Of a DNA stretch of 64,000 nucleotides, positions 9,038 through 64,000 are shown piece after piece. The stretch's first letter is position 1; each line of letters opens with the position of its first letter. Source of the stretch: Klebsiella pneumoniae. Its GTDB lineage: Bacteria > Myxococcota_A > UBA9042. The notes under the pieces were generated by a model. That model worked only from the letters and a program-made list of their open reading frames with translations. It searched no databases and was not told where the DNA came from. The stretch is from the NCBI GenBank assembly GCA_945889325.1, contig CAMDBH010000008.1:10118-74117 (forward strand). Reading direction: 5' to 3'. The position numbers and the translations under genes are program-made.

Positions 9038-9629
9038 ATGAAAAGCGTCAAAAGGTAGCGAAACCAATCCAAAAATCCATCATGCCAAACCGGCCCGACG
9101 CGGAAAGTCCGCGTCGACTTGCGGCGATCGCGCTTTAGTTTTAGTGCGTTGTGGGAAGTGATGACGGTGATTTGGGCAACACGATCGGTAAGCGTGTGAT
9201 ATTCAAAAGTTTTGGCAAAGGCAAGATGCAAAGGACAGTCGGCAGGGCCGCCGAAGAGACCAGACCCATCGCGCAATTCTGACAACAGGCGAAACACAGC
9301 AAGATCTTTATTTATTTGTCGGTAGACCGCAGGTGATGCGGCACCACAACTGAGAAAAACGGGGCGGAATCATGGAACAGATGTTGGGGAAAAACGAAAA
9401 TATGCACAGTGAACTGACCAAGCACGGTGAAAAGCCTGCGAAAAGCGACAATTCTGCGGAATCCAGCAAGGGAGAAAGCAGCAAAAACGACAGCGCGCCA
9501 CACGTCGCAAACTTGCGCACGGCCAAGCAAAATGGTCGGCAGAATGAAGAATTTACGTTGCAAAGCAGCCTATTGGGTATTGGGCAAGGCCAGCAGGCCA
9601 ATGAACGCATCTTGGCGACGGAGATAGTT

Positions 9630-12569
9630 ATGGCCGACGCGCAGGACAGTTTGACGCAAGCAACCGAAAGCGTGACGCATGTGTCCAGTTCACGCACGCC
9701 GGGCGGGCAATTGCCGGCGTCGCAAAAGGGGGATCGCGGCCCCGGCATCGCGATGGCGCGCTTGCACACCAAAGTCGGCGTGCATCCCTTTGAGGAAGTG
9801 GCGTGGGAGCGCCGCACGGCGAGCATCACCAACACCCGCGGCGAAACGATTTTTGAGCAGAAAAATGTCGAGTTTCCCTCAACTTGGTCGCAAACAGCGA
9901 CGGCTGTCGTGGTGTCAAAGTATTTTCGCGGCACGTTGGGCACGCCGGAGCGCGAGTACAGCGTGCGCCAGTTGATCGGCCGGGTTGTCAATACGATCGG
10001 CCAGTGGGCGCGTCAGGGCCAGTATTTTGCAACGGAAATCGACTGCAAAGTTTTTGAAGATGAATTGACATGGCTGCTTTTGCACCAGCGCATGGCCTTC
10101 AACAGCCCTGTGTGGTTCAACGTCGGCGTTGAAGCAAAACCGCAATGTTCGGCCTGCTTTATCAACAGCGTCGACGACACGATGGAATCCATCCTGTCGC
10201 TGGCCAAAACCGAAGGCATGTTGTTCAAATTCGGCAGCGGCACCGGCAGCAATTTGTCGCCGATTCGCAGCTCTCGCGAAGCCTTGGCTGGCGGTGGCGA
10301 GGCCAGCGGTCCCGTGAGTTTCATGAAGGGTTTTGACGCTTTTGCCGGTGTGATCAAGTCCGGTGGCAAGACGCGGCGGGCGGCGAAAATGGTGATTTTG
10401 GATGTACAACATCCAGATATTGTTGAATTTATTCGCTGCAAGATGAAAGAAGAAAAGAAGGCCCATGCGCTGATCGATGCGGGCTACGACGGGCGCATCG
10501 ACGGCGAGGCCTATACTTCGGTGTTCTTTCAGAATTCGAACAATTCTGTGCGGGTTAACGACGAATTCATGCGCGCTTTTGAAAACGGCGAACAGTGGCA
10601 GACCAAGGCCATTCGCGACGGCCGCGTGGTTGATACACATCAAGCCAAAGACATTATGCATGAAATTGCCGATTCGACCTGGCAATGCGGCGATCCCGGC
10701 ATGCAGTACGACACGACCATCAACGACTGGCACACCTGTCCGAACACGGCGCGCATCAACGCGTCCAATCCGTGCAGCGAATACATGTTTTTGGACGATT
10801 CTGCTTGCAATTTGGCAAGTTTGAACCTGATGAAGTTTGTCACGCCGCAAGGTGAGTTTGACTGCAAAGAATTTCAACACGCGGTCGACGTCACGATTAC
10901 GGCGCAGGAAATTTTGGTCGATTTTGCGGCCTATCCGACGGCGCGTATCGAAAAAAATAGTCATTTGTTCCGGCCGCTTGGATTGGGTTTCGCCAATTTG
11001 GGGGCCCTGCTCATGACGCGCGGTTTGGCTTACGATTCGGCGGAAGGTCGCGCGTATGCGGGCGCAATCACGGCGCTGATGCACGGTCAAGCCAACTTGC
11101 AATCTGCGCATATTGCTGAGCAAATCGGCGCATTTCCGGGCTATGATCTCAACCGCGAGCCGATGCTGCGGGTAATGAACAAGCACCGCGCAGCTGTCAA
11201 TGCCATTGATACCGTAGCGGTTTCGGGCGATCTGATGGCGTCGGTCCGCCAAGTGTGGGACGACGTCGTGGCGGCGGGTGGGCAGTTTGGTTACCGCAAT
11301 GCGCAAGTCAGCGTGCTCGCACCTACTGGAACTATTGCCTTTATGATGGATTGCGATACGACGGGCATTGAACCAGACATCGCACTTGTGAAATACAAGA
11401 AGCTGGTCGGTGGCGGTACGTTGAAGATCGTTAACAATGCGGTACCGCAAGCCCTGCAAAAGCTCGGCTATTCGGCCCAGCAAGTTGAAGATATCACGAC
11501 GTATATTGACCAGAACGATACGATCGAAGGCGCGCCGCATCTGCGTTCGGGGCATCTGGCCGTGTTCGATTGCGCGTTTACGCCGGCCAACGGCACGCGG
11601 TCTATCCATTATCAGGGGCACTTGAAAATGATGGCGGCCTGTCAGCCGTTTCTGTCGGGCGCGATCAGCAAAACCGTCAATTTACCGCATGATGCGACGA
11701 TTGAAGACATCGAACGCACGTATTTGGAAGCGTGGAAATTGGGCATCAAGGCGGTGGCGGTGTACCGCGACGGCTGCAAGCGCAGTCAACCGCTGAGCGT
11801 GAAAAAAACCAGTGATACCAAAGAAGGCAACACGTTGGGGCACGCGGAAAATCAAGCCGACGTGCGCGCGGGCGGGGGGGGGGCTGAACGAGTCGTTGAA
11901 AAAATTGTTGAAAAAGTGGTCGAAGTGACCAAGCCCGGACGGCGCAAACTTCCAGAGGAGCGTCAGGCACTTACGCATAAATTCAGCATCGCGGGCCACG
12001 AGGGCTACATCACGGTGGGCATGTACGAGGACGGCACGCCGGGCGAGATGTTCATCCGGATGGCCAAGGAAGGCTCAACCCTGAGCGGACTTCTGGATGC
12101 TTTTGCCACTTCGATCTCCATGGCGCTGCAATACGGCGTGCCGCTGCAGGTGTTGTGCGACAAGTTCACGGCGACGCGCTTTGAACCCAGTGGTTTTACA
12201 GGCAATCGCGACATTCCGATCGCCAAGTCGATCACCGATTACATTTTCCGTTGGATGGCGCTGAAGTTTTTGGACGCTGGTGAACAGGATATCGTCGAAT
12301 TGCCGCCCGTCGAGGCGCCTGTGGCGCCAACGGTCAGTTCGTCGGCACCGTCGGCGGCGCCGCGGATTAAAGCCAGCAAAACTGTTGGTTTTGCGGTCGA
12401 TTCAGTTGCGGCCGTGAAAGCAGACGTGGTGCCGACAAAAGCTGACAACAGCAAGCTCTTTAAGGCCTACATGGACAGCCCGCTGTGCTCGAGTTGCGGT
12501 CGCATGATGGTGCCGGCGGGCAAGTGTTACCGCTGCGATTGTGGGGCAACGTCGGGCGGTTGTTCGTGA
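9630..12569 (+). CDS. nrdJ: Adenosylcobalamin-dependent ribonucleotide reductase, class II
   Basis: Class II RNR blocks are present: VGVHPFEEVAWERR, VVSKYFRG, PVWFNVG, CSACFI and FKFGSGTGSNLSPIR. The C-terminal zinc ribbon is CSSCG...CYRCDC. I prefer the ATG at 9630, which has GGAGA 6 nt upstream. The listed ORF start at 9372 would add an 86-aa low-complexity extension. Confidence 0.92.
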   Translation: MADAQDSLTQATESVTHVSSSRTPGGQLPASQKGDRGPGIAMARLHTKVGVHPFEEVAWERRTASITNTRGETIFEQKNVEFPSTWSQTATAVVVSKYFRGTLGTPEREYSVRQLIGRVVNTIGQWARQGQYFATEIDCKVFEDELTWLLLHQRMAFNSPVWFNVGVEAKPQCSACFINSVDDTMESILSLAKTEGMLFKFGSGTGSNLSPIRSSREALAGGGEASGPVSFMKGFDAFAGVIKSGGKTRRAAKMVILDVQHPDIVEFIRCKMKEEKKAHALIDAGYDGRIDGEAYTSVFFQNSNNSVRVNDEFMRAFENGEQWQTKAIRDGRVVDTHQAKDIMHEIADSTWQCGDPGMQYDTTINDWHTCPNTARINASNPCSEYMFLDDSACNLASLNLMKFVTPQGEFDCKEFQHAVDVTITAQEILVDFAAYPTARIEKNSHLFRPLGLGFANLGALLMTRGLAYDSAEGRAYAGAITALMHGQANLQSAHIAEQIGAFPGYDLNREPMLRVMNKHRAAVNAIDTVAVSGDLMASVRQVWDDVVAAGGQFGYRNAQVSVLAPTGTIAFMMDCDTTGIEPDIALVKYKKLVGGGTLKIVNNAVPQALQKLGYSAQQVEDITTYIDQNDTIEGAPHLRSGHLAVFDCAFTPANGTRSIHYQGHLKMMAACQPFLSGAISKTVNLPHDATIEDIERTYLEAWKLGIKAVAVYRDGCKRSQPLSVKKTSDTKEGNTLGHAENQADVRAGGGGAERVVEKIVEKVVEVTKPGRRKLPEERQALTHKFSIAGHEGYITVGMYEDGTPGEMFIRMAKEGSTLSGLLDAFATSISMALQYGVPLQVLCDKFTATRFEPSGFTGNRDIPIAKSITDYIFRWMALKFLDAGEQDIVELPPVEAPVAPTVSSSAPSAAPRIKASKTVGFAVDSVAAVKADVVPTKADNSKLFKAYMDSPLCSSCGRMMVPAGKCYRCDCGATSGGCS

Positions 12570-27414: not shown

Positions 27415-28677
27415 CTACTCGGAAAAAGGTATCACCGCCGGATTTGCTTGCAATACAGCGGCTTGCTGCGGCGTCAGTTTGCTCGCAGCCTGACTGGTTT
27501 TGAAGTACATCAAGTTGGTGTCGTCGCCGGTTTCGGGGGTGTCCGGGATGGCGTCATGCAGCGGTTGGCCGGTCGGCGGATCGGCTTCGGTAGTATGAAA
27601 CAGCCCAAGATAATGACAAATCTCGTGGGCCATCACCTTGCCGATCAGATCCTGGCCCGCGTTGGTCGCCAACACCACGCCCGACCGCGGCCCGGGCTGC
27701 CGCGCGATCAAGCCCGACGGCGGCCCGGGAATGCCGCCGGAAAGTCCAGCAATTGTGACGGGCGCGGCGCCAGTGTCGACCATGATCGCGTCGACGAGAA
27801 AAACATTTATGCCCGGCGGCAGCGCCGGCGCCCCCAAAAACAGCGAGGCGATCTCAAGGTCCAGTCCGTTGTCATGTTTGACGATCAAGGTCGTTTGGGC
27901 CATGTCGAACAGGCGAAAGTGGGCGATTTCAATGCCGGCCTGGGCCAGAATGTCCTTCACATCCGCGAACATTTGCACGATCAGTGGGTGCTGCGAGGCG
28001 TTCGTCGCCGTGATACCCTTGGTGCCGCTGAGGCACAGGTTGATGTCGATCGCCCCAGCCTTTTTTTGTTCTGGGGTTTTGCAAACGATATCAAGGGAAA
28101 CGGCGACCGAAGCGCTGGCGCCTTTGATCGTGCCCGCCGCGGCGTCATAATCAAATGCGAAAGCGGAAAGGGTATTTTCGCCAGGGTGAAGTACGAGTTG
28201 CGGCGAATTTGGCAACAAAAAAGCGGCGGCCTGCGGTTGCGCGCGCACGCGATTTTGGCACGCCGCGCAAAGCCACGGCGCGTCGGCATCTTGCAGCCAG
28301 GTTTTGGGCACGACCAGATCGCCTGCGCCGCCCGTCCATTGGGCCACCTGAATTTGGTGTTTTGCACTAGAAAACGTAGCGACAACGGAGGACGCACCCA
28401 TGGGAATCTGCACACCAAAAGCCGCGGTGCGTCCGGCATCGTCGGTTGTAAAATGGCCTGCGTCGACTTGCAGGCGCCAGGCAGGGCAACCATCGGCCGC
28501 TTCATCGGGAGGGGTATCGGCGGCGGACTGGTCTACGGGCGCACTGTCCTGCGCATCTGCCCCAGTGCCAGGGGTCGAACACGCGAAAAAAGTCAATAAT
28601 AACAAGGTTGTGAAGATATATGTGCAAAACTTGGTCGCAGCTGTTGCCGACTGGAATAGAACGCTACGGGCTGGCAT
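27415..28677 (-). CDS. Metzincin lipoprotein, M43 (pappalysin/ulilysin)-like
   Basis: The internal ATG at 28677 gives MPARSVLF...LLLLTFFAC. The zinc site is HEICHYLGLFHTTE, followed by IPDTPE and NLMYF as in M43. The listed ORF runs to 29544, but its first 289 codons look non-coding. Confidence 0.75.
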   Translation of the reverse strand: MPARSVLFQSATAATKFCTYIFTTLLLLTFFACSTPGTGADAQDSAPVDQSAADTPPDEAADGCPAWRLQVDAGHFTTDDAGRTAAFGVQIPMGASSVVATFSSAKHQIQVAQWTGGAGDLVVPKTWLQDADAPWLCAACQNRVRAQPQAAAFLLPNSPQLVLHPGENTLSAFAFDYDAAAGTIKGASASVAVSLDIVCKTPEQKKAGAIDINLCLSGTKGITATNASQHPLIVQMFADVKDILAQAGIEIAHFRLFDMAQTTLIVKHDNGLDLEIASLFLGAPALPPGINVFLVDAIMVDTGAAPVTIAGLSGGIPGPPSGLIARQPGPRSGVVLATNAGQDLIGKVMAHEICHYLGLFHTTEADPPTGQPLHDAIPDTPETGDDTNLMYFKTSQAASKLTPQQAAVLQANPAVIPFSE

Positions 28678-28986
28678 TGTATGAATGGAACCTGCGCGGG
28701 CTGTTCCCTCCCGCACGCCGACGCGCAGCGATTCCGTGGTGTGGCTGCCTGGGCCCGACGTAAGTGGTCCCCCTCCCCCCCGACCGACCCGGTCGGGCTT
28801 CAGGCGAGCCCCCAGTACCGCGCGGTTTTGTTCGCATTTTTTGTCAATCCGGCGGGCTGATCTCTCCACTTTTGCACGCCGCGCGTCCTTTGACGCAGCC
28901 ATCAAACCGCGCGTTCGTGATCTATCCTCCACGTTCTGGCAACGAAAGCAAGCGCAGAGGCCGGGCCGACTTGCGCAAAACGGCGT

Positions 28987-29622
28987 TTGTGGGCGACGAT
29001 CGGCCAAACACGCGCGGCCAGCCATCGCGCCGAGGTGACTCTGATTCGCAATCTTTCGCTGATTATTTTGTTGTTGAGTTTGCCCTATTCGGCATTCGCG
29101 CTGGATTACGACCGCAATGAGGTCGTCAGTCGCGAGCTGGCTTTGGGCGGCATGATGGCGCCGTTTGACATCGACCCGCGCCCGCCGGTGGCTTGCCCCT
29201 ACGACAAGCGTTTGGTCTGCGAATCGTACAACTCCAAACCGGTCGGCTTCTTCATCCGCGGTAGCGCACGTCGGCACCGCCGGAATTTCTACGTAGGGGC
29301 CGAAGCGCAACTTGGCCTCACTTTGCCTTTGGACAGCTTTGGCCCGCACCCGTGGGTGGGTGTCGGCGGCGCCGTCGGCGTGGAAACCGCCGACAATGGC
29401 TGGGCGCGAGTCCGCGGATACTCCGAGCTCGGCGTTGGCATCTATTTTGCTAATAGTTCCATCACAGACATGCTCAATTTCTTTTTTGAGGTCGGTGGGC
29501 GCTACCAACTCCGCGTTTTTGATCGGCCGCACTTTTTGCTGCACCTCGGTATTCGCGGGATGACCAGCTTTAGCGAACTAGGGCTGCAGGTTGCCGCCGG
29601 GGTCGGTTGGACTTTTGACTGA
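28987..29622 (+). CDS. Small OMP-like beta-barrel protein
   Basis: The signal reads LIRNLSLIILLLSLPYSAFA, and the real start may be the GTG at 29035. The sequence has a Gly/aromatic strand pattern and ends ...AAGVGWTFD. Confidence 0.55.
   Translation: MWATIGQTRAASHRAEVTLIRNLSLIILLLSLPYSAFALDYDRNEVVSRELALGGMMAPFDIDPRPPVACPYDKRLVCESYNSKPVGFFIRGSARRHRRNFYVGAEAQLGLTLPLDSFGPHPWVGVGGAVGVETADNGWARVRGYSELGVGIYFANSSITDMLNFFFEVGGRYQLRVFDRPHFLLHLGIRGMTSFSELGLQVAAGVGWTFD
29435..29454 (+). promoter_or_regulatory. Sigma-54-type promoter-like element P3 (TTGGCATCTATTTTGCTAAT), orphan
   Basis: The GG-N10-GC spacing is correct and the -12 element is a perfect TTGCT. P3 shares 14 fixed positions with P1 (47121) and P2 (56797). 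It lies inside the 3' end of the OMP-like ORF and faces a 470-bp gene-free spacer. Confidence 0.4.
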
Positions 29623-47120: not shown

Positions 47121-47140
47121 TTGGCATAATTTGTGCTAAT
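47121..47140 (+). promoter_or_regulatory. Sigma-54-type promoter-like element P1 (TTGGCATAATTTGTGCTAAT) upstream of Cys-repeat gene 2
   Basis: The sequence is TGGCAT-N5-GTGCT with correct GG-N10-GC spacing, about 90 nt upstream of the ATG at 47231. It is 16/20 identical to P2. The palindrome ATTTCG-C-CGAAAT at 47098-47110 lies just upstream. Confidence 0.45.
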
Positions 47141-55339: not shown

Positions 55340-56575
55340 ATGACGCGAGAAATCCTTATTAGCCTCACCTTCACAGCGCTGTGCGGCTGCTACGACGACA
55401 CCACGGATCGCCCTGCGCCTGCAAATACCCTAAATAATATCGGTTTTACCCTCGCCGCCTCCAAACGTGTCTTGGTGGTCGTCGATTCCGACTACGCCTC
55501 GTCCGCGGTCGCCTTCGTCGACCTCACCAGCGGTGAAGTGGCCTCAAAAATCCTGACATCCGGCACAAAAGTCTCCGCAACCACCACGGCGCTCAGCGGT
55601 GATCTCGTCGTTGCCCAATCGCCGGCTTTGGACCTCACGGCTGTGCTTGTCGATCGCAACCACAGCGTTATTACCTGGATCGGGCGCGGCGGGGGCATCT
55701 CACAACTATCCGTATCTACGGGATTTGCTGCAAATCCTCAGGACTACGCACAAGTTTCAGCGCAGTACGGCTGGGCGTCGCGCAATGCCCGCAATCCGTT
55801 GCCGTCGGCCCCAACCGACGATTTCGACGAAGGCGACGACTTGGTCGAAATCGACCTAGCGACGCACAAGATCGTGCGCCGCGTACCCCTTGGCGCGCAC
55901 ACGAGCCTGCCCGGGGCCGCCGCTGGAGCGATGCGCATGGCGTTCGACGGCGTGTCACTTTGGGTGCCGCTGTCGTCGATCAGCGCCGATTTCAAAGCGC
56001 AAGGCGCCGGACGTGTCCTTGCCGTTGATGCCAAAGCTGCCGCCATTGTGGCTACGGTTGACCTACCGACAACCAAAAATTGCACGACGGTGCGCTACCT
56101 TGCAAAAACGCAGCGGTTGGCTGTCGCTTGCTCGGGGTCATTTGCAGAGCCGACCAAGCAAACGCAACAGAGCGCCATCGCGGTGTTTTCGGCGGCGACG
56201 CCTTCGGATGCAGAAATTGTCTTTCAAGCTAATGAGTTGCCTGGTGGGACCCCTTTTTCCAAAGACTTCGTTTGCCTAGACGAGCGCCACTGCGCCGTCA
56301 TCGGTTTCGGCGATTTCGCCATCGGCCGCCCCGACAAATTGTGGCATCTCGACCTAGTCACCCGCAAAGCAACCTTTGTCGCCAATTGCGCCGCCCCTTT
56401 CGCCGGCAGCGGCCTATTTGCCGATGCAGCCACCGGCATCGTCTGGCTCGGCGAACGCAAACGCAGCAACGGCGACCTGCGACGATTCGATTTCACCAAC
56501 GGCAACAAAGAATTGCCCGCGATCTCCAGCAATCCTGGCGGCCTCGGCGCCACAGAGTTCGGCGCGATGCAATGA
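55340..56575 (+). CDS. Hypothetical lipoprotein, beta-propeller-like
   Basis: The internal ATG at 55340 gives MTREILISLTFTALCGC. The sequence is beta-rich and repetitive (VLVVVDSDYASSAVAFVDL..., VLAVDAKAAAIVATVDL...). No domain was recognised with certainty. Confidence 0.6.
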   Translation: MTREILISLTFTALCGCYDDTTDRPAPANTLNNIGFTLAASKRVLVVVDSDYASSAVAFVDLTSGEVASKILTSGTKVSATTTALSGDLVVAQSPALDLTAVLVDRNHSVITWIGRGGGISQLSVSTGFAANPQDYAQVSAQYGWASRNARNPLPSAPTDDFDEGDDLVEIDLATHKIVRRVPLGAHTSLPGAAAGAMRMAFDGVSLWVPLSSISADFKAQGAGRVLAVDAKAAAIVATVDLPTTKNCTTVRYLAKTQRLAVACSGSFAEPTKQTQQSAIAVFSAATPSDAEIVFQANELPGGTPFSKDFVCLDERHCAVIGFGDFAIGRPDKLWHLDLVTRKATFVANCAAPFAGSGLFADAATGIVWLGERKRSNGDLRRFDFTNGNKELPAISSNPGGLGATEFGAMQ

Positions 56576-56796
56576 CACCGCCAAACGCTGACCGTTAGCG
56601 AGCGCACCGGCGCTGCGGCTTCTGCCGCCGCCTCGCCGACCGGCGTTCGTCGAAGGCACCCCTCTTGAATTTTCGCAATAAGCGACCAATGTTCTTCCAT
56701 GCCCCACCGCCAGCGCCCCACCCGCGCTGATCGCCGCCGCAAACGCCAACTTCGGTCGCTAATCTCGCCGAATCTCGGCGAATTTTGGCTTGACAC

Positions 56797-56816
56797 TTGG
56801 CATTTTTGCTGCTAAT
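56797..56816 (+). promoter_or_regulatory. Sigma-54-type promoter-like element P2 (TTGGCATTTTTGCTGCTAAT) upstream of the 998-aa lipoprotein gene
   Basis: The sequence is TGGCAT-N5-CTGCT with correct GG-N10-GC spacing, about 125 nt upstream of the ATG at 56940. The palindrome TCGCCGA-ATC-TCGGCGA lies at 56765-56781. Similarity to the P1 region extends over about 50 nt. Confidence 0.45.
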
Positions 56817-56939
56817 TCCCCCGCACCGCGCGTCACCTGCGCCAAACGGCACCGCGGTGGTTGCTGCCTGCCTGTGCCACTCTTTCTGCCCAACCGGGCA
56901 TGTTCGACCCGTGTCATCACCGGGTCTTGGATTTTTCGA

Positions 56940-59936
56940 ATGAAAACCAGCACATTCAAAAAAATCGCCTGCTTTCGCCGCCGCGCACTGAGCGTGCTGA
57001 CCGTGTTGTGCGCTCTCGCGACCAGCGCCTGCGAAGACGGTCCCTATCAGACATTCAGCGCGGCGCCGACAGGGGCGCAAAAACGTTGGAACGACGGCAC
57101 GCCGCCAGCCAATGCAAATCCACCTGCTTCTCAGGGTTTTGCCAGCGATTTTGCGGGCGGCGGCAACAAGCAGGAGATTTGCACTGGCGAGGAGCGGGCA
57201 AAGCGCTGGGCGGCAATGGTCCACGAGCCGATTATCCCGCCGACGCAGGCAGCCGGCTTGGACGGTGCGGGCGGGGCGGCGTGGCAAGGGCTGACTGTGG
57301 AGCAAGCGGAGAAAATCAACTGTCAAAGCACGTCCTTGGGCGATTATTACGGCGACGGCACGTTGGTCAATCTGTGGGGCGACAACGGCGAGGTTTTGAT
57401 CAACTATAGCTTGTCAAACCACAATAAAATTGTCGGGATTTCCTTGTCGACCGGTTACTTGGGCGCGTTGAATTTCAAAAGCCGCGATGGCAAAAACAAC
57501 TTCCAAATTGTGCTTAACACCCAGATCACCAAGAACGGCAATCCGTACCAAGTGGATTGGGATGACGACGCCAAATTTAACATTGAAGCGACTGAAATTG
57601 CAGATGCTTTGCTTGCAACGTACGCGCCGCAATTGCCGGCCGAAAACATCAAGGCGGGCAGTTGTATCGCCAATGGCCATTGCACCAAGGCGCTGTATCC
57701 GGATCAAGCCGCGCTGCGGGTTTGGCCGTTGGGCGTGCATTTGTCAGCCGATTACCCGTATTCGGCCCAGCCGATTCCGTCCAAATTCACAGGCATTGAC
57801 CTCAGTATGCCGCGGGTGATGCCGTATTCACTGGCGGCCACGCAGATGAAATTGGACAAGCAGGGCCCCCTTGCGCAAATCGGCGGATTGGGCGGCGGCG
57901 CCAAGACCTGCAAGATCGAACTGGGCATGACTTGGAAGGAATTCTTGGCCAATTGCGTCAATGTGACGGGTAAAAAGGAGCTAGACGATGTGGCCTACGC
58001 CAAGCTGACGGGCAACATCGGTCACGGCGCGGAGTCGTTTTTGTTCGATACTTCCGGCATCGACGTCAATTTCTTGTCGTCGACGCTGGCGCCGTTTGAA
58101 GTATTGCTGGATGCCGATCGACCCCAAGACGGCGACAAGGCCGACAGTGTGAGCATCGATGCCGAATCACTTGGAGTATTTACGAATGATTACGCAAATG
58201 ATGGCAAGACGCAGGATTTGCACGGCACAGGGGCCATCTACTTCGAATACGCGCGGCTGGTGCAAGCCGAGATCAACCGCCAGATTAAGCTCAAGAATCC
58301 CGCGGCTGTGACACATGAACTGGGAGATCCGGCCTGCCTTTTCCCCGATTCGGCCAACTTTGACCCTGCAACCTTCAAATACGCTGAAAATTGCACAGGT
58401 TTTGAAGGTTTTTTGACCCCGCTTGCGCCCTTGACCGACAAAGCCGGCGTGGCGATGCCGGTGGACGTCAGCCCGACCAACCGCTTGCGTTTGGGCGTCG
58501 ATGCCGCCGAGATCATTGGCGCTTTGGGCATGAAGCCGGGCAAGCCGCTGGCGGCCTTTTGCATGGACGCCAACGGCAACTTTGATACTGGCTATTTTTA
58601 TTGCGGCACGGGCGACAAATACGGTGCAAAAGGCGCGTTTTGGGATGTGTCGTATCAGCGGGTGCTCAGCGTGTTGGGCAAGGGGCAACTGACCAATCTG
58701 CCACTGGAATGTCGCGATAGGCGCTTCTACTTCCGCATGTACGCCACGGCCGTGGTCAAGTACCTGACAGTCGCAGCCGATCCGCTGGTTGTCGATCTCA
58801 GCGCCGTCGACATCGATTTGAACAACTTGATCTTCGACACCGAGGGCTCGGGGCAGTCCGAATCGGCCGAGTTCATCGACCGGCGTTTTGTCTCGGGCAC
58901 CCAAGCGCCGTTAGATTTTGTGATCGCCGCCGATATCGTCAACGGTACGCTTTATAACTACAGTTTTGCGCGCTATCTCGTGCGCGAAGAAGCTGCGATG
59001 TACCAGGCGATGACGGAGAAGTCAGGTACCCCTCTGGGCAAGGAAAATGGCTTGAGCCTGACAAATGTCTTTGGTAGTCCAGTGTTAGCTAACGGTTGGA
59101 CGGATCACGAGGTCAAGGGCGCCGCCAAGAAATCGGCGTATCAATGTGCGACGGCCGATTGGAAGACCAAAGACGAATACACCAAAATTTACAGCGCTTG
59201 TGAAGGAGAGTTGCCGCCACTGGATCCGACTTATGCCACAGATCCGACCGATCCGACGGCGCCGCCGGCGATGCCGCTGCGTGAAAATGGCAAACCGTAT
59301 TTGACGCCATACAAAGGCGCATTTGCGGGCAGCGAAACGCCATTTTCCCTTGGTTCGGCGCGCATCGACGTTGAAGCGACGTTGCCCGCATTGGCGTCGG
59401 CCAAAGTCAAAATCCACCGCACAAGCGACCCGTACGACCCAGAAAGCAGCGCGCTTGCACCGATTGCGGTCCTGGTGCCTTGGTTGCCACCGCAGCCGGG
59501 CTCGGGCTATTTTGTGCCGACCAACGCGCAGCAGGACAAGTTAATTGAAGCAGGACTCATTGATTTTTCCGGCGTGACGACCAGTTTTAGCGTTTATTAC
59601 CATCAAGTTGAGCAGACAGACGGTGGCTTGGGCCCTGTGCAAATCGCCGCCGTGGAGGCCAAGACCTTTCTGGGCGACGTATTCCTCTGCCAAGATCCGC
59701 AGTCCCGCGACATCCTGCGCACGCGCATGTACGGGTCGGTGCAAGCGATTATTGAATGGATCGATGCACATCCAGGTGTTTACGACGCCTGCGGCCTGCT
59801 CATCCGCTACAGCCCTTACGACAATTTTCCCGACTTCATCTTGTCGACTGTCAACGGCGTGCGTATCGGCGTAAGTCAAGGCGGCGGTTACGGTCGCGTC
59901 AATGACGCCACGCTGTCGTACGTCGAAACGAACTAA
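56940..59936 (+). CDS. Large orphan lipoprotein (998 aa), no recognisable domain
   Basis: The internal ATG at 56940 gives MKTSTFKKIACFRRRALSVLTVLCALATSAC. The reading frame is long and uninterrupted with coding-like composition. Confidence 0.65.
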   Translation: MKTSTFKKIACFRRRALSVLTVLCALATSACEDGPYQTFSAAPTGAQKRWNDGTPPANANPPASQGFASDFAGGGNKQEICTGEERAKRWAAMVHEPIIPPTQAAGLDGAGGAAWQGLTVEQAEKINCQSTSLGDYYGDGTLVNLWGDNGEVLINYSLSNHNKIVGISLSTGYLGALNFKSRDGKNNFQIVLNTQITKNGNPYQVDWDDDAKFNIEATEIADALLATYAPQLPAENIKAGSCIANGHCTKALYPDQAALRVWPLGVHLSADYPYSAQPIPSKFTGIDLSMPRVMPYSLAATQMKLDKQGPLAQIGGLGGGAKTCKIELGMTWKEFLANCVNVTGKKELDDVAYAKLTGNIGHGAESFLFDTSGIDVNFLSSTLAPFEVLLDADRPQDGDKADSVSIDAESLGVFTNDYANDGKTQDLHGTGAIYFEYARLVQAEINRQIKLKNPAAVTHELGDPACLFPDSANFDPATFKYAENCTGFEGFLTPLAPLTDKAGVAMPVDVSPTNRLRLGVDAAEIIGALGMKPGKPLAAFCMDANGNFDTGYFYCGTGDKYGAKGAFWDVSYQRVLSVLGKGQLTNLPLECRDRRFYFRMYATAVVKYLTVAADPLVVDLSAVDIDLNNLIFDTEGSGQSESAEFIDRRFVSGTQAPLDFVIAADIVNGTLYNYSFARYLVREEAAMYQAMTEKSGTPLGKENGLSLTNVFGSPVLANGWTDHEVKGAAKKSAYQCATADWKTKDEYTKIYSACEGELPPLDPTYATDPTDPTAPPAMPLRENGKPYLTPYKGAFAGSETPFSLGSARIDVEATLPALASAKVKIHRTSDPYDPESSALAPIAVLVPWLPPQPGSGYFVPTNAQQDKLIEAGLIDFSGVTTSFSVYYHQVEQTDGGLGPVQIAAVEAKTFLGDVFLCQDPQSRDILRTRMYGSVQAIIEWIDAHPGVYDACGLLIRYSPYDNFPDFILSTVNGVRIGVSQGGGYGRVNDATLSYVETN

Positions 59937-60010
59937 CTGACGGCAGTGCTGCCTCGGCGCGGCCCGTTGCAACGTGTGTGTCTGCGCATCGCGCGCAAGT
60001 AGGTGATCAG

Positions 60011-63000
60011 ATGGTCAAATTCAGTCATGTCGCCGTTCGGTTGCTGCTTTTGTGTTTGGCGGCATCGGCTTGCGTACAAGATCGCCCGGCGCGCAACGGC
60101 GTGTTCAATGAGAATCAGTACCTACGCAAGGATTTCCTAATCCAGGCCGGCAACGGCGCGACGACGGATCCGGGCTGGTTTGTGAAAGCGACGGTGGTTG
60201 AAACGTCGTCGCCCAATCCTCTCGGCGGTGAAGCCATTGATTTGTTTCCGGGTCTTGAAAATGGCGGTGCCTACGTGCGCTTTCGCGTCACCCAAGACAA
60301 GTTGGAAATGGTCAGTTTGCGCGAACTTGGTCCAGATGCCGTCGGGAAAACCCAAACGGTTATCAATAGTTGGCCGGCGACCAACGTCGACTTGAAATTC
60401 CGCGTCAATTTAGACGGTGAGAACACCAATTTTTACGAAGAAAACCAAGAACTGGACTGGGACGTGCGTCAGTGGGTCAAATTGCAGTTTAATGTCAATG
60501 ATGGCGGCGACTTGCTGATGTTTGGACCGTACACCGGCGCGGGCTTGCAGCGCTGCACCGATCTGGGCCACGCCACGGTGACGCTGGTGCCCGATTCATA
60601 CTATGTCTTAGAAGATCAAGGCTATTTCCAATGGATCGAGGAGATTTCCTTGCCATTGCAGTGGAATGACGACACCTGTTACCAAGAATTTGGCGCAGCC
60701 GGCGATACTGCCCTGTCTTTGGGCCGTTCGCACGTGACTTTGCGCATCATGTTCAGCATGATGCGCGCCAATCCAGCGCCGACGTATCAGCCGCTGCAAG
60801 TGCAGGAAAAAGATCCGATCCACCACAAGTACGGCCCGATCGAGTTCTTAAGCATCGCCCGAGACCCGGACAGCGGTTTGCTGGCGGCGCGCAGCTTGGT
60901 CATGCGATTTGATCCCAAAAACCCGATGATGACTTGGTATTTTGCCCAAGGCTATCCAGAAGCATACAAGAAGCATTTCACCGACAAGAACGGCATCGTC
61001 GATCAAACCAATGCAATCCTGACCGCGGCCGGTGCGACCTTGCGTATGGAAGTCAAGAACTTTGATCAGGATCTGGCCAAAGATGAACGGCCACGGCAGT
61101 ACGGCGACATTCGCTACAATTTCCTGCGCTGGATGAGCGACAAGGATACCCAAGACACTTTTGCCGGTGTGGCGCAGTTCATTACAGATCCGCGGACGGG
61201 TGAGACGCTGTCAGCCTCGATCAACTTGAACGATTTTGCGATTAAAGACGAATATGTGCAGCGCATCGACTTCTATTTGCAGCAGATCGGCGCCAGCGCA
61301 AACATCAACAGCGCTGACGCTTGGCCCGACTTGTGCCCCAATGGCACCGCGCCCGCTTGCCGCAACGCCGACGATGCGGTCACGCCCTGCGCGGCCAACC
61401 AAGCCAAAGTCTGCGCCAAAGCCGCCGCAGTCGGCACGTGCGCTGAAGGTGCGGTGGCGGCGCTGGACGAGAAAAAGGTGGTGACGCTGCACAACACCAA
61501 TTCATCGCTCTTTGGCAAGATGCAGGAATACTTGCAAAAGCCGGTGGCGGATGTAGGTCCGCTTGGGCCAAAGGATTTTATCGCCAAGCAAGACCAAGAT
61601 TTTTACAACGCTTATTACGCGGTTTTGCCGTATTGGATTTACGCCGATCCGTGGATGAACTTGTTTGTCATGCCCGAAGGTCAAGACGGCGTCTACGGGC
61701 CGGAGGAAATTTGGAAGTCTTTGGCCGATGAAGCGGAATTTCACAAATTGACCGGTGCCATCGATCACGGCAAACAGCCGATTGCGGGCATGGCTGGCAA
61801 AGATGGGCTGGCCAACACCGCGGCTTTCCTTAACAAAATGAAAAAGCTCACCCGCAACCACGTCGAATTGCCGCGCAAACTGCAGCGGGCGCATAGTCGA
61901 GTCAAGAAAGACGTGCCAGCGGCGTTTTCCTTCCTAGAAATGATGAAGAAGAACGCGCGCCATTGTGTCGGCGGCAAATGGGAGACCAAGGAGCAATGGA
62001 CCCAAGCGTTTATCGATAGTTACTGGAGCCAAGTGATGTGGCATGAATTTGGCCATGTGCTAGGGCTGGAGCACAACTTCATGGCTTCGGTCGATAGGCC
62101 AAACTTTCCGACGTACAAAATCGGTGACACCACGAATGTGAGCATGTATTCGTCCAGCGTGATGGAATACAACGCCGCGCCGGATCGGGTGTTTTGGCAT
62201 CCCGGCTTTGGGCCCTACGATGCCGGTGCCATCGCTTGGATTTACGCCAACACCCAGAAAAGCGGCAAAGGCGGCAGCAGCATTTCCGGCCAAGTCAGCG
62301 CGACCGCGCCGTGGAACGACCCACTGGGCTTTAACAAAGACGGCAAGGAAACGCAGTTTTTATATTGTTCTCATCAGCACTTGCAGTATACACCCCTTTG
62401 CCGCATGGGCGATTCCGGGACCACGCCGAGCGAAATTATCGCCAACGACATCGACCGCTATGAATGGCAGTACCAATGGACCAATTTCCGCGTCTATCGC
62501 AAGTTCTGGGATCTACATGCTTATGCCGATGCGCCGGCGACGATGATAACCGAGTTGCGCCGCTTCTTGCCGATGTGGACCACCGATTGGGCGCCGGACG
62601 TGTTGGTCGACGCTTTTCGGCGGGTCGGCGTGGTCAATCCGGCGGCAAAAGGCTCTGATGTCGATTACTACGACACCTTGGTGTCAAAATTCAACAAGGA
62701 AGCGTCGCAAGCCAATCAGATGATGGCGGCTTTCCATAAGGCCGTGATTCAACAGTCTTCTGGTGAGCGACCCTTTAGCACGACCTACGACAAGTTTTAC
62801 GGCGACGTGACGCAGCAAGGCATCATTTTGGACAAACTTTTTGCGATGCAGGCCTTTGTCGGGCTTTGGCCGATCGACAATTACGACTTGAATCAAACCG
62901 AAGGCTATTACATGGCCAGTTTTTCTGAAGCAGGCGACGCGTCTTACAACGCTGTCGCCGAAGACGTCGTGGCCAGCATGATCGGCGGTCAATACGATGT

Positions 63001-63481
63001 TTATCCTTACTTTAAGCCACTTGCAGTCGCTCAATTTGCCGCTGACACCCATGACCCGGCCTTTAGCGGCCGCATTGAGATGCGCGACTGGATCGGCGGC
63101 AAAATCTTTGAGCGTGAACAGGATTTCCTAGATTTCTTTCGCAGCATGGCGGTCAAATACGCCTTTGGCGGTTGTACGGCGCTCAACACCTGCAAGTACG
63201 ACCCGCAAACGCCCGCCGTCGATGCGACTGACACCCACCATAGTGATACTTATAACGAATTCATCGGTCCCGATGGTCGCCGCTACATTTGGGCCTACAT
63301 CGCCAACCGCAACCAGTGGGTGGCCGTCGACCGCGACCGGAACATTGCTAGCTATTTGATTGTACGGGCTTATACCGCCGACGTCATCAACCAACAGGAC
63401 GATGGCGGCTCCCCCGGTTTCGCTTATGATTACGAGTTGGAGATGAAGTACTTCCTCGATGCCTTCACTTATTACAATTAG
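60011..63481 (+). CDS. Large zinc metalloprotease lipoprotein (metzincin, DUF4953/Met-zincin-like)
   Basis: The ATG at 60011 has AGGTGA upstream. The lipobox is MVKFSHVAVRLLLLCLAASAC. The zinc site is MWHEFGHVLGLEHNF, followed by SSSVMEYN and GPYDAGAIAWIYAN. Confidence 0.8.
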   Translation: MVKFSHVAVRLLLLCLAASACVQDRPARNGVFNENQYLRKDFLIQAGNGATTDPGWFVKATVVETSSPNPLGGEAIDLFPGLENGGAYVRFRVTQDKLEMVSLRELGPDAVGKTQTVINSWPATNVDLKFRVNLDGENTNFYEENQELDWDVRQWVKLQFNVNDGGDLLMFGPYTGAGLQRCTDLGHATVTLVPDSYYVLEDQGYFQWIEEISLPLQWNDDTCYQEFGAAGDTALSLGRSHVTLRIMFSMMRANPAPTYQPLQVQEKDPIHHKYGPIEFLSIARDPDSGLLAARSLVMRFDPKNPMMTWYFAQGYPEAYKKHFTDKNGIVDQTNAILTAAGATLRMEVKNFDQDLAKDERPRQYGDIRYNFLRWMSDKDTQDTFAGVAQFITDPRTGETLSASINLNDFAIKDEYVQRIDFYLQQIGASANINSADAWPDLCPNGTAPACRNADDAVTPCAANQAKVCAKAAAVGTCAEGAVAALDEKKVVTLHNTNSSLFGKMQEYLQKPVADVGPLGPKDFIAKQDQDFYNAYYAVLPYWIYADPWMNLFVMPEGQDGVYGPEEIWKSLADEAEFHKLTGAIDHGKQPIAGMAGKDGLANTAAFLNKMKKLTRNHVELPRKLQRAHSRVKKDVPAAFSFLEMMKKNARHCVGGKWETKEQWTQAFIDSYWSQVMWHEFGHVLGLEHNFMASVDRPNFPTYKIGDTTNVSMYSSSVMEYNAAPDRVFWHPGFGPYDAGAIAWIYANTQKSGKGGSSISGQVSATAPWNDPLGFNKDGKETQFLYCSHQHLQYTPLCRMGDSGTTPSEIIANDIDRYEWQYQWTNFRVYRKFWDLHAYADAPATMITELRRFLPMWTTDWAPDVLVDAFRRVGVVNPAAKGSDVDYYDTLVSKFNKEASQANQMMAAFHKAVIQQSSGERPFSTTYDKFYGDVTQQGIILDKLFAMQAFVGLWPIDNYDLNQTEGYYMASFSEAGDASYNAVAEDVVASMIGGQYDVYPYFKPLAVAQFAADTHDPAFSGRIEMRDWIGGKIFEREQDFLDFFRSMAVKYAFGGCTALNTCKYDPQTPAVDATDTHHSDTYNEFIGPDGRRYIWAYIANRNQWVAVDRDRNIASYLIVRAYTADVINQQDDGGSPGFAYDYELEMKYFLDAFTYYN

Positions 63482-63485
63482 TTGC

Positions 63486-64000
63486 GTGCGGTTGTCGCTT
63501 CTGGCGCTGCTGTTTGTGGCGCAGACCGCCGCGGCCCAGGAGCCGCCAGCGCTCGCGCTGGAGGTTACGCCAGCTATTACGCCGGAAATACCAGGACTTG
63601 AGCTAGAAATCACAGCCACGACCCTGCCAACGGCGGCGACGGTCGCGGCTAGCGAAAAACTGTGGGAAGTTGGCCTGACCGTTGAAACTCACCGCTTGCT
63701 CATCCAAAACGACCTGGAAGGCGCCGCCAACAACAAATTGGTTAACTTCCTGTATGCTTACGTGGGCTATCACCTCACAAAGCAGGATACTGTTGAAGTC
63801 CGTGGCTATTTCTACCAACGCTTCTTGGCCGACCCGGGCGAAACGGGTCTGCGCAATGACGATATTGCGCTTTATTACAAGCACTTGTTGCCTAGGATAC
63901 CATTTTCCGGCGGCGAACTGGAAGCGCGCATCACCGGCGCCCTTTCGATTCCCGGCTCGTTTTCGACCAAGCTGATGGGCCCATACACCGCCCCGCGCCT
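63486..64000 (+). CDS. OMP-like secreted protein, 3'-truncated by the window edge; absent from the supplied ORF track
   Basis: A GTG at 63486, 5 nt after the metalloprotease stop, opens a frame that stays stop-free to the window end. It gives the signal peptide VRLSLLALLFVAQTAAAQEP. Beta-strand/aromatic-rich text follows (NFLYAYVGYHLT, VRGYFYQRF, IALYYKHL). Confidence 0.55.
   Translation, partial: MRLSLLALLFVAQTAAAQEPPALALEVTPAITPEIPGLELEITATTLPTAATVAASEKLWEVGLTVETHRLLIQNDLEGAANNKLVNFLYAYVGYHLTKQDTVEVRGYFYQRFLADPGETGLRNDDIALYYKHLLPRIPFSGGELEARITGALSIPGSFSTKLMGPYTAPR

Follow-up and report, generated by a model that had tools for sequence, protein, structure and literature searches.

A cassette conserved across uncultured myxobacteria pairs a predicted metzincin lipoprotein with a large lipoprotein of an uncatalogued family

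We analyzed the interval from position 55340 to 63481 of a 64,000-nucleotide stretch of DNA (hereafter the window; positions 10118-74117 of contig CAMDBH010000008.1, called C8 below) from a Myxococcota metagenome-assembled genome (MAG) of 3.47 Mb and 84% completeness. Three open reading frames (ORFs) in this interval encode predicted lipoproteins of 411, 998, and 1156 amino acids, which we call lp411, lp998, and mz1156; the last of these is followed by omp342, a gene that runs past the end of the window. lp998, mz1156, and omp342 make up a cassette that is conserved across uncultured myxobacteria. lp411 is not part of this cassette; the lipoprotein family to which it belongs is widespread in Myxococcota, and the copy here stands alone. 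To the overall reading, that the interval holds two unrelated units, an outer-membrane zinc protease module (lp998-mz1156-omp342) and a separate lp411, we give an even chance. The original prediction, made from the sequence alone, had listed the three lipoproteins as one set downstream of a group of Cys-repeat genes. The three ORFs are present with the sizes it gave, and each encodes a conserved lipobox cysteine; the grouping did not survive the comparison with related loci.

In tblastn searches, lp998, mz1156, and omp342 were found in the same order and on the same strand in all of the first 11 related loci, which span other families and classes and reach down to 28-30% identity; neither lp411 nor a Cys-repeat gene was nearby in any of them. 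A larger sample of 77 loci around mz1156 relatives was taken from named genomes, essentially all of which are Myxococcota MAGs. For the synteny counts, hidden Markov models of the four families were run on the six-frame ORFs of 72 Myxococcota loci, with the assessable loci as denominators. lp998 is located directly upstream of mz1156, on the same strand, in 59 of 60 loci, and the median gap between the two genes is 54 nt. omp342 is located directly downstream of mz1156 in 35 of 63 loci and upstream of lp998 in a further six; the link to the downstream gene for a protein resembling an outer-membrane protein (OMP), which had been suggested earlier, is thus borne out in 41 of the 63 loci. lp411 was found at none of the 72 loci, and Cys-repeat genes were found near the cassette at only one, which argues against treating the three lipoproteins as a set and against a tie between them and the Cys-repeat genes upstream, as the original grouping implied. 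Among the other flanking genes, none was seen at more than nine of the 72 loci; three of the top flanking clusters, which we inspected, were two antisense ORF artefacts and one real small lipoprotein. We found this three-gene arrangement described nowhere.

The phyletic distribution of the genes agrees with their linkage. Full-length mz1156 is encoded in 26 of 301 genomes of the phylum (~9%), including 8 of the 24 genomes from the window's own family. lp998 scores at E ≤ 1e-8 in 22 of the 301 genomes, each of which also has full-length mz1156 (the lists were compared by eye); no genome among the 301 has lp998 without the protease. The four genomes with mz1156 and no lp998 score belong to the most divergent family; two inspected genomes of this family carry the full trio, and the lp998-type protein is shorter there (~800-840 aa). 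The genetic pairing of lp998 and mz1156 is obligate, and the barrel-like gene usually accompanies the pair. Several Polyangia MAGs contain three or more paralogous cassettes. The close homologues with names come from MAGs labeled 'Myxococcales', 'Polyangia/Polyangiaceae', 'Bradymonadia', and 'Deltaproteobacteria'. Outside the Myxococcota, only partial matches to mz1156 were found, in Oligoflexia and Bdellovibrionales.

By its motifs, mz1156 is a metzincin, with an HExxHxxGxxH zinc-binding site (HEFGHVLGLEHNF) followed by a Met-turn of the SxMxY type. Both elements had been pointed out in the original prediction, and the catalytic residues are intact throughout the family: an alignment of 41 sequences shows no variation at H678, E679, G681, H682, H688, M718, or Y720, and residues 678-688 read HEFGHVLGLEH. 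The third His and the Met are 30 residues apart, a spacing that we take to resemble that of the serralysins. In Pfam and NCBIfam, the only match was to DUF4953 (PF16313, 'Met-zincin'), at residues 675-761 with 44.5 bits against a cut-off of 24.2, and this match spans just positions 5-100 of the 316 positions of the model. The matches to M10 (PF00413; 20.3 against 24) and M43 (PF05572; 14.9 against 23) remained below the Pfam cut-offs. In a profile search of PDB sequences, mz1156 matched the zinc helix of matrix metalloproteinases (E 6e-4) and the region from this helix to the Met-turn of serralysins (E ~0.06), and nothing else. mz1156 has more than 341 clusters of homologues, the best 120 of which are full length at 46-78% identity.

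The relation to known metzincins can be stated at two levels. Almost all homologues of mz1156, like mz1156 itself, exceed the cut-off for DUF4953, named 'zinc-dependent metalloprotease' at NCBI, and share its zinc site HExGHxLGLxHNF; what sets the mz1156 clade apart from other DUF4953 proteins is its lipoprotein anchor, its length of ~1150 aa, and its obligate partner genes. Within this catalogued family of unknown function, mz1156 represents a new variant at the level of a clade. No mention of DUF4953 was found in the literature library that was searched, and we therefore regard the family as one without an established role; two papers that mention DUF5074 seemed to have no bearing on these genes. 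The serralysins (M10B) and astacins (M12A) share with mz1156 the zinc-binding motif and a Met-turn carrying the 'tyrosine switch' residue; unlike them, mz1156 is without an RTX or EGF/MAM-type appendage and is predicted to be lipid-anchored, and no structural match to them was recovered.

The AlphaFold2 (AF2) model of mz1156 is confident overall, with a mean predicted local distance difference test (pLDDT) of 80.6 and a predicted template modeling score (pTM) of 0.81. Its N-terminal region (~35-410) is beta-rich and is followed by a helical insert (487-627) and by the long active-site helix (660-683); short strands surround the Met-turn, and residues 806-1155 make up a helical C-terminal domain. 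The catalytic site is held within about residues 650-750. From the order of the secondary-structure elements in this model, we suspect that the canonical catalytic domain is split by an insert of ~220 residues. The ~650 N-terminal and ~400 C-terminal residues, which had been flagged as unexplained, remained so: Pfam, PDB profile, and Foldseek searches returned nothing there. The best Foldseek match, which is not significant, was to the PsbO barrel (E 0.08). Profile self-alignment gave no internal repeats, and no pro-domain was recognizable. Six putative disulfide pairs are formed by cysteines most of which are invariant or nearly so in the family alignment. Residues 21-43, which follow the signal peptide, are among the most conserved of the protein (C21-R25-P26-R28-N-G-V-F-N-E-N...Y37...K40), and the pLDDT is below 50 at residues 10-33.

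lp998 belongs to an uncatalogued family whose fold was not recognized in its model. The description of lp998 as a protein without any motif is borne out: Pfam, NCBIfam, a profile search of PDB sequences, and whole-chain structure searches with Foldseek gave no match (nothing at E < 1e-3; best E 0.13 in the PDB and 0.07 in BFVD). A Pfam scan of every member of the lp998 alignment returned scattered, weak, non-recurrent matches only and no likeness to known inhibitors. Profile self-alignment detected no internal repeats, and hhalign found lp998 to be unrelated to both mz1156 and lp411. The description as an orphan, in contrast, has to be given up. A word-indexed search returned 28 full-length clusters with identities from 86% down to 28%, all 'hypothetical' and without a Pfam match, and a profile search against 1.84 billion representatives returned 639 proteins at E ≤ 1e-3; with the limit set at E ≤ 1e-30, 295 remain. 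lp998-type proteins are named only 'hypothetical' in databases. Taken over all three lipoproteins, the profile and structure searches did not place the set in families with established roles.

The AF2 model of lp998, built with 26 homologues, has a pLDDT of 83.7 and a pTM of 0.82 and shows a compact mixed alpha/beta body from residue 78 onwards. The mature protein has 14 cysteines that are invariant or nearly so and that occur in consecutive pairs, corresponding to ~7 putative disulfide pairs; this pairing fits an oxidizing, extracytoplasmic location. Between the anchor and the body, residues 32-77 have a pLDDT below 50 and are modeled as disordered, and this tether is as conserved as the folded body (mean majority fraction 0.57 for both). 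In the same pairs of genomes, lp998 evolves faster than mz1156 (38-41% against 52-55% identity). The coordinates of these genes and their motifs are given in Table 1.

Table 1. Features discussed in the text. Positions are those of the window unless a locus is named; gene limits in the window follow the ORF listing.
Feature	Position	Strand	Description
lp411	55340-56575	+	411-aa predicted lipoprotein; lipobox LCGC at 55379-55390; putative lipidated Cys17; outside the cassette
Terminator-like hairpin	56765-56781	+	7-bp stem with 5 G-C pairs, followed by ATTTTGG; separates lp411 from the promoter candidate of the cassette
Sigma-54-type -24/-12 element TTGGCATTTTTGCTGCTAAT	56797-56816	+	GG-N10-GC; 124 nt before the lp998 start codon
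lp998	56940-59936	+	998-aa predicted lipoprotein; lipobox TSAC at 57021-57032; Cys31
mz1156	60011-63481	+	1156-aa predicted metzincin lipoprotein, Pfam DUF4953; lipobox ASAC at 60062-60073; Cys21
Zinc-binding motif HEFGHVLGLEHNF	62042-62080	+	mz1156 residues 678-690; H678, E679, H682, H688
Met-turn SSSVMEYN	62150-62173	+	mz1156 residues 714-721; SxMxY type; M718, Y720
omp342	63459-64000, on to ~64487 window-equivalent (contig C8 73576-74604)	+	342-aa barrel-like OMP
~184-aa protein	L149:3148-3651, L150:3057-3623, L152:8025-8537, L153:8532-9098		upstream of the receptor in lp411-type operons

omp342 starts either at the ATG at 63459, which overlaps the stop codon of mz1156, or at a GTG at 63486; for mz1156 itself, the length of 1156 aa is counted from the ATG at 60011, and an in-frame GTG at 59978 is an alternative start. 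The omp342 product has a signal peptide and ~10-12 alternating amphipathic segments, and it contains no Cys. It ends in AAFSVKY, and a Tyr or Phe is terminal in all eight aligned homologues. No Pfam or NCBIfam family matched omp342, and Pfam searches with the members of its alignment gave scattered weak matches only. From these features, omp342 appears to encode an outer-membrane protein resembling a beta-barrel, with the hallmarks of a barrel inserted by the beta-barrel assembly machinery (BAM).

Six loci (L059, L063, L072, L079, L095, and L100) belong to a paralogous cassette subtype, in which a very Cys-rich small lipoprotein (frames of ~185-280 codons) is encoded directly downstream of the metzincin, in place of the barrel.

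On the basis of the signal peptides and the conserved lipobox cysteines, lp411, lp998, and mz1156 are predicted lipoproteins. In all three, the signal peptide ends in the lipobox; C17 of lp411 and C21 of mz1156 are invariant in the family alignments, and the consensus of the lp998 family around its lipidated cysteine is L-x-A-C-E-D-G-P. In Myxococcus xanthus, a Lys at +2 marks inner-membrane lipoproteins, and the zinc-metalloprotease lipoprotein FibA of the extracellular matrix carries an Ala at +7 for matrix export (PMC3222651). Lys at +2 is absent from lp411, lp998, and mz1156. mz1156 has an Ala at +7, but the family consensus at this position is Ser, and we therefore gave this residue no weight. 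FibA is like mz1156 in being a lipidated myxobacterial zinc metalloprotease that leaves the inner membrane, and it is an example of the export of lipoprotein proteases past the periplasm by myxobacteria. FibA is a thermolysin-type (M4) enzyme and not a metzincin, and it is not known to have an obligate partner or a barrel gene.

From the linkage, the co-occurrence, and the export signals, we infer that the products of the cassette form a complex at the outer membrane. mz1156 would be the catalytic subunit and lp998 its obligate non-catalytic partner. omp342 may anchor or display both lipoproteins, or may pass their products. The conserved low-confidence segments that follow the lipidated Cys in lp998 and mz1156 could be docking sites for each other or for the barrel; we read these tethers as interaction segments because they are conserved yet unstructured, which is unusual for lipoproteins. 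Such a complex would most likely degrade extracellular protein, at the surface of the cell or on vesicles, and so serve feeding or predation. Myxococcota are predators and polymer degraders whose envelope biology is known from only a few model species. The distribution is patchy, paralogues have expanded, and lp998 evolves faster than its partner; these traits suit a role facing the environment better than a housekeeping one. A more elaborate version, in which the small barrel holds or threads the conserved tethers and so displays the protease together with a novel-fold recognition subunit against prey or polymers, would make the cassette an undescribed kind of outer-membrane machine, found in Myxococcota only, and lp998 a new fold family; we consider this version rather improbable.

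The same genes could instead serve the maintenance of the envelope from the periplasmic side. Both lipoproteins would then be attached to the inner leaflet of this membrane's outer counterpart, the outer membrane; envelope proteins such as misassembled OMPs, lipoproteins, or matrix precursors would be processed or degraded by the metzincin, and omp342 would serve either as a substrate or for docking. In most diderms, the default orientation of outer-membrane lipoproteins is towards the periplasm, and no signal for surface export is known in Myxococcota. The distribution of the cassette, patchy as it is, looks vertical, with one to several copies per genome, and no nutrient transporter is conserved beside it; all of this would suit a periplasmic role. 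However, housekeeping genes are usually universal in a clade, and the cassette is present in the minority of genomes reported above, both in the phylum and in the window's own family. The several paralogous copies in some Polyangia MAGs fit an adaptive role better, and both lipoproteins are large and rich in disulfide-type Cys pairs. We regard the periplasmic alternative as unlikely.

Alternatively, lp998 might be the dedicated substrate of mz1156, might keep it latent or inhibit it, or might chaperone its folding as a pro-domain in trans. The strict adjacency of the two genes, the lack of any genome with lp998 and no protease, the lack of a recognizable pro-domain in mz1156, and the faster evolution of lp998 all speak for such a relation. 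Against it, a well-folded, disulfide-rich, multi-domain protein of 970 residues (pTM 0.82) is very large for an inhibitor or a chaperone, lp998 has a lipid anchor and a conserved tether of its own, and its profile resembles neither that of mz1156 nor those of known inhibitors. We hold this explanation to be decidedly unlikely, and prefer to see lp998 as a partner in the surface proteolysis proposed above.

Dedicated outer-membrane barrels encoded together with large lipoproteins or surface enzymes are also the logic of Sus-like loci and of the PorU/PorV-PorZ/PorQ proteins of the type IX secretion system (T9SS). The cassette follows the same logic; however, no homology to these systems was found, and PorZ appeared only as a non-significant Foldseek match to lp998 (E 0.85). 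omp342 itself is no TonB-dependent transporter and has no match among the barrel families of Pfam. The cassette pairs an unstudied metzincin family with a partner of ~1000 residues that has no family, motif, or structural neighbor. If the three proteins do form a surface complex, this would be a new way to mount a protease on the surface of a diderm, possibly with a new fold.

The short gaps and the overlapping stop and start codons make it probable that lp998, mz1156, and omp342 form an operon, which is distinct from lp411. Transcription of the cassette from the sigma-54-type promoter at 56797-56816 is plausible from its sequence: the core TGGCAT-TTTTG-CTGCT at 56798-56813 is close to the consensus TGGCAC-N5-TTGCW and has the GG and GC elements at a spacing of 10 nt. 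The hairpin between lp411 and this element is a consensus match only, and the region has no more sites of this kind than shuffling would lead one to expect.

The window has three copies of the 20-mer that contains the promoter element, TTGGCAT-N6-TGCTAAT, where 0.03 would be expected (100-fold), and no further copy exists in the 3.47-Mb genome. All three are on the plus strand and lie within 27 kb, at 29435-29454, 47121-47140, and 56797-56816. The copy at 47121 precedes Cys-repeat gene 2, and the shared 20-mer points to co-regulation on a local scale in this organism. Downstream of the copy at 29435, no plus-strand gene is obvious, and a metzincin-like gene at 27415-28740 is transcribed away from this copy.

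This shared element, together with the adjacency of the genes in this genome, is what would speak for a joint function in which all three lipoproteins process, anchor, or export the upstream Cys-repeat rod proteins. The counts from the related loci, namely one of 72 and none of the first 11 for the Cys-repeat genes and none of 72 for lp411, whose family has a context of vitamin B12 uptake, go against it. We find such a joint function highly improbable, and the functional grouping with the Cys-repeat genes is largely refuted by synteny.

lp411 has a distribution and a genomic context of its own. A word search returned 18 clusters, and a profile search found full-length, mostly single-copy homologues in 95 of the 301 phylum genomes, including 23 of the 24 from the window's own family. 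No Pfam or NCBIfam family matched lp411, and Pfam searches over the alignment members gave scattered weak matches only. The family profile aligns to itself at offsets of ~55-65 residues (P 7e-6 and 1e-5), which is consistent with the earlier description of lp411 as beta-rich; this periodicity suggests propeller-like repeats, as would be expected for propeller blades.

In the first three homologue contexts, a TonB-dependent receptor gene overlapped the start of the lp411 homologue in two, and a Peripla_BP_2/FecCD importer was encoded downstream in the third. Over 29 relatives, a homologous TonB-dependent receptor is located immediately upstream in 22, and Peripla_BP_2 and FecCD genes are located downstream in about half (flanks of 1.5 kb). 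Among the eight family loci with longer flanks, five have a cobalamin riboswitch (Rfam; 55.7-105 bits against a gathering threshold of 31.5). It heads the receptor operon in four of the six receptor-linked loci, and one of the two stand-alone homologues has it immediately in front; with short flanks included, four of five stand-alone copies are without it. The usual order in the family would thus be cobalamin riboswitch, BtuB-like TonB-dependent receptor, lp411-type lipoprotein, BtuF-like binding protein, and BtuC-like permease. The closest relatives of lp411 by score are also stand-alone copies.

A conserved protein of ~184 aa without a Pfam match is encoded upstream of the BtuB-like receptor in four Myxococcota operons of the lp411 type (Table 1). 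In L149 and L153, the two with a detected riboswitch, its gene is located between the riboswitch and the receptor. A homologue at L034:7438-7992 is directly upstream of an lp411 homologue.

The BtuG-BtuB pair of Bacteroides (PMC6143338, PMC10404256) and XusB-type systems (PMC13142918) likewise place a lipoprotein with propeller-type repeats beside a TonB-dependent transporter, in loci for corrinoid (or siderophore) uptake under a cobalamin riboswitch, and the context of the lp411 family is alike. By this analogy, the lp411 family would be the positional and regulatory counterpart of BtuG, the seven-bladed, corrinoid-capturing propeller lipoprotein of Bacteroides, and it is likely a new, phylum-specific instance of a known principle. 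It differs from BtuG and XusB in having no detectable sequence similarity to them and in belonging to a different phylum; the copy in the window, in addition, has neither a transporter nor a riboswitch. If the analogy holds, the family would be a BtuG-like accessory lipoprotein of B12 uptake outside the Bacteroidota, and the principle of a surface capture lipoprotein plus a TonB transporter would extend to another phylum.

Several results weigh against our reading of the interval. For the cassette, a whole-chain Foldseek search of the mz1156 model against the PDB returned no match at E < 1e-3, not even to the metzincin fold of a five-stranded sheet with active-site and C-terminal helices, and the fold assignment of mz1156 therefore rests on the sequence motifs. 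omp342 is absent at 22 of the 63 loci, six of which have a small Cys-rich lipoprotein in its place; the barrel thus cannot be essential in every lineage. Every carrier of the cassette that was found is a MAG of an uncultured organism. For the promoter, conservation in front of lp998 homologues was not clear, since a crude scan found sigma-54-like sites scoring at least 9 in 17% of 59 orthologous upstream regions, against 9% of background windows, a weak excess; and no gene for an enhancer-binding protein (Sigma54_activat) was present among the window ORFs scanned. For lp411, the copy in the window has no adjacent TonB receptor, binding protein, permease, or riboswitch. A search of the 84%-complete genome returned no homologue of the btuB-, btuF-, and btuC-like genes and no cobalamin riboswitch, and a profile search of PDB sequences found no similarity of lp411 to BtuG or to any other PDB chain (best E 1.2, to a glutamine cyclotransferase).

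The lp411 results bear on an alternative for the whole family, according to which its members are general accessory lipoproteins of TonB transporters, or periplasmic chaperones for some other ligand, for example a metal or haem, and are not specific for corrinoids, with the copy in the window differing in role. Peripla_BP_2/FecCD importers also carry siderophores and haem; no riboswitch was detectable at two of the six receptor-linked and four of the five stand-alone loci, and this genome has neither a riboswitch nor a btuB-like locus. The riboswitches at the other four receptor-linked loci and at one stand-alone copy are, in contrast, a specific B12 signal. We consider the non-corrinoid alternative possible but doubtful, and continue to favor a family context of cobalamin uptake.

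A gene for a ribonucleotide reductase of class II, which depends on B12, is present in the window at 9372-12569 (plus strand), although the genome is without a detected cobalamin riboswitch or btuB/btuF/btuC-like homologues. At 3.47 Mb, the genome is far below the 4.5-8.2 Mb of other members of its family.

Other metzincin-like sequences are present in the same genome. An apparent second metzincin lipoprotein (HEICHYLGLFHTTE) is encoded in the window at 27415-28740 on the minus strand, with a weak match to Peptidase_M43 (E 6e-4). Elsewhere, a zinc helix of the DUF4953 type, and only this helix, was found in open frames of 1550-1850 aa at C34:8289-8375, C34:13334-13426, and C9:39715-39816. Comparable frames with the DUF4953 helix, roughly 1000-1800 aa long, are present in ~70 further phylum genomes; all these frames represent a different, larger metzincin family.

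Past the end of the window, two genes convergent with the cassette were noted on the minus strand of the locus L021. A lipoprotein-like gene of 260 aa (L021:1618-2400) has a weak match to Peptidase_C39_2 (E 0.03), and an ORF of 838 aa (L021:2433-4949) was taken as ComEC-like from its sequence.

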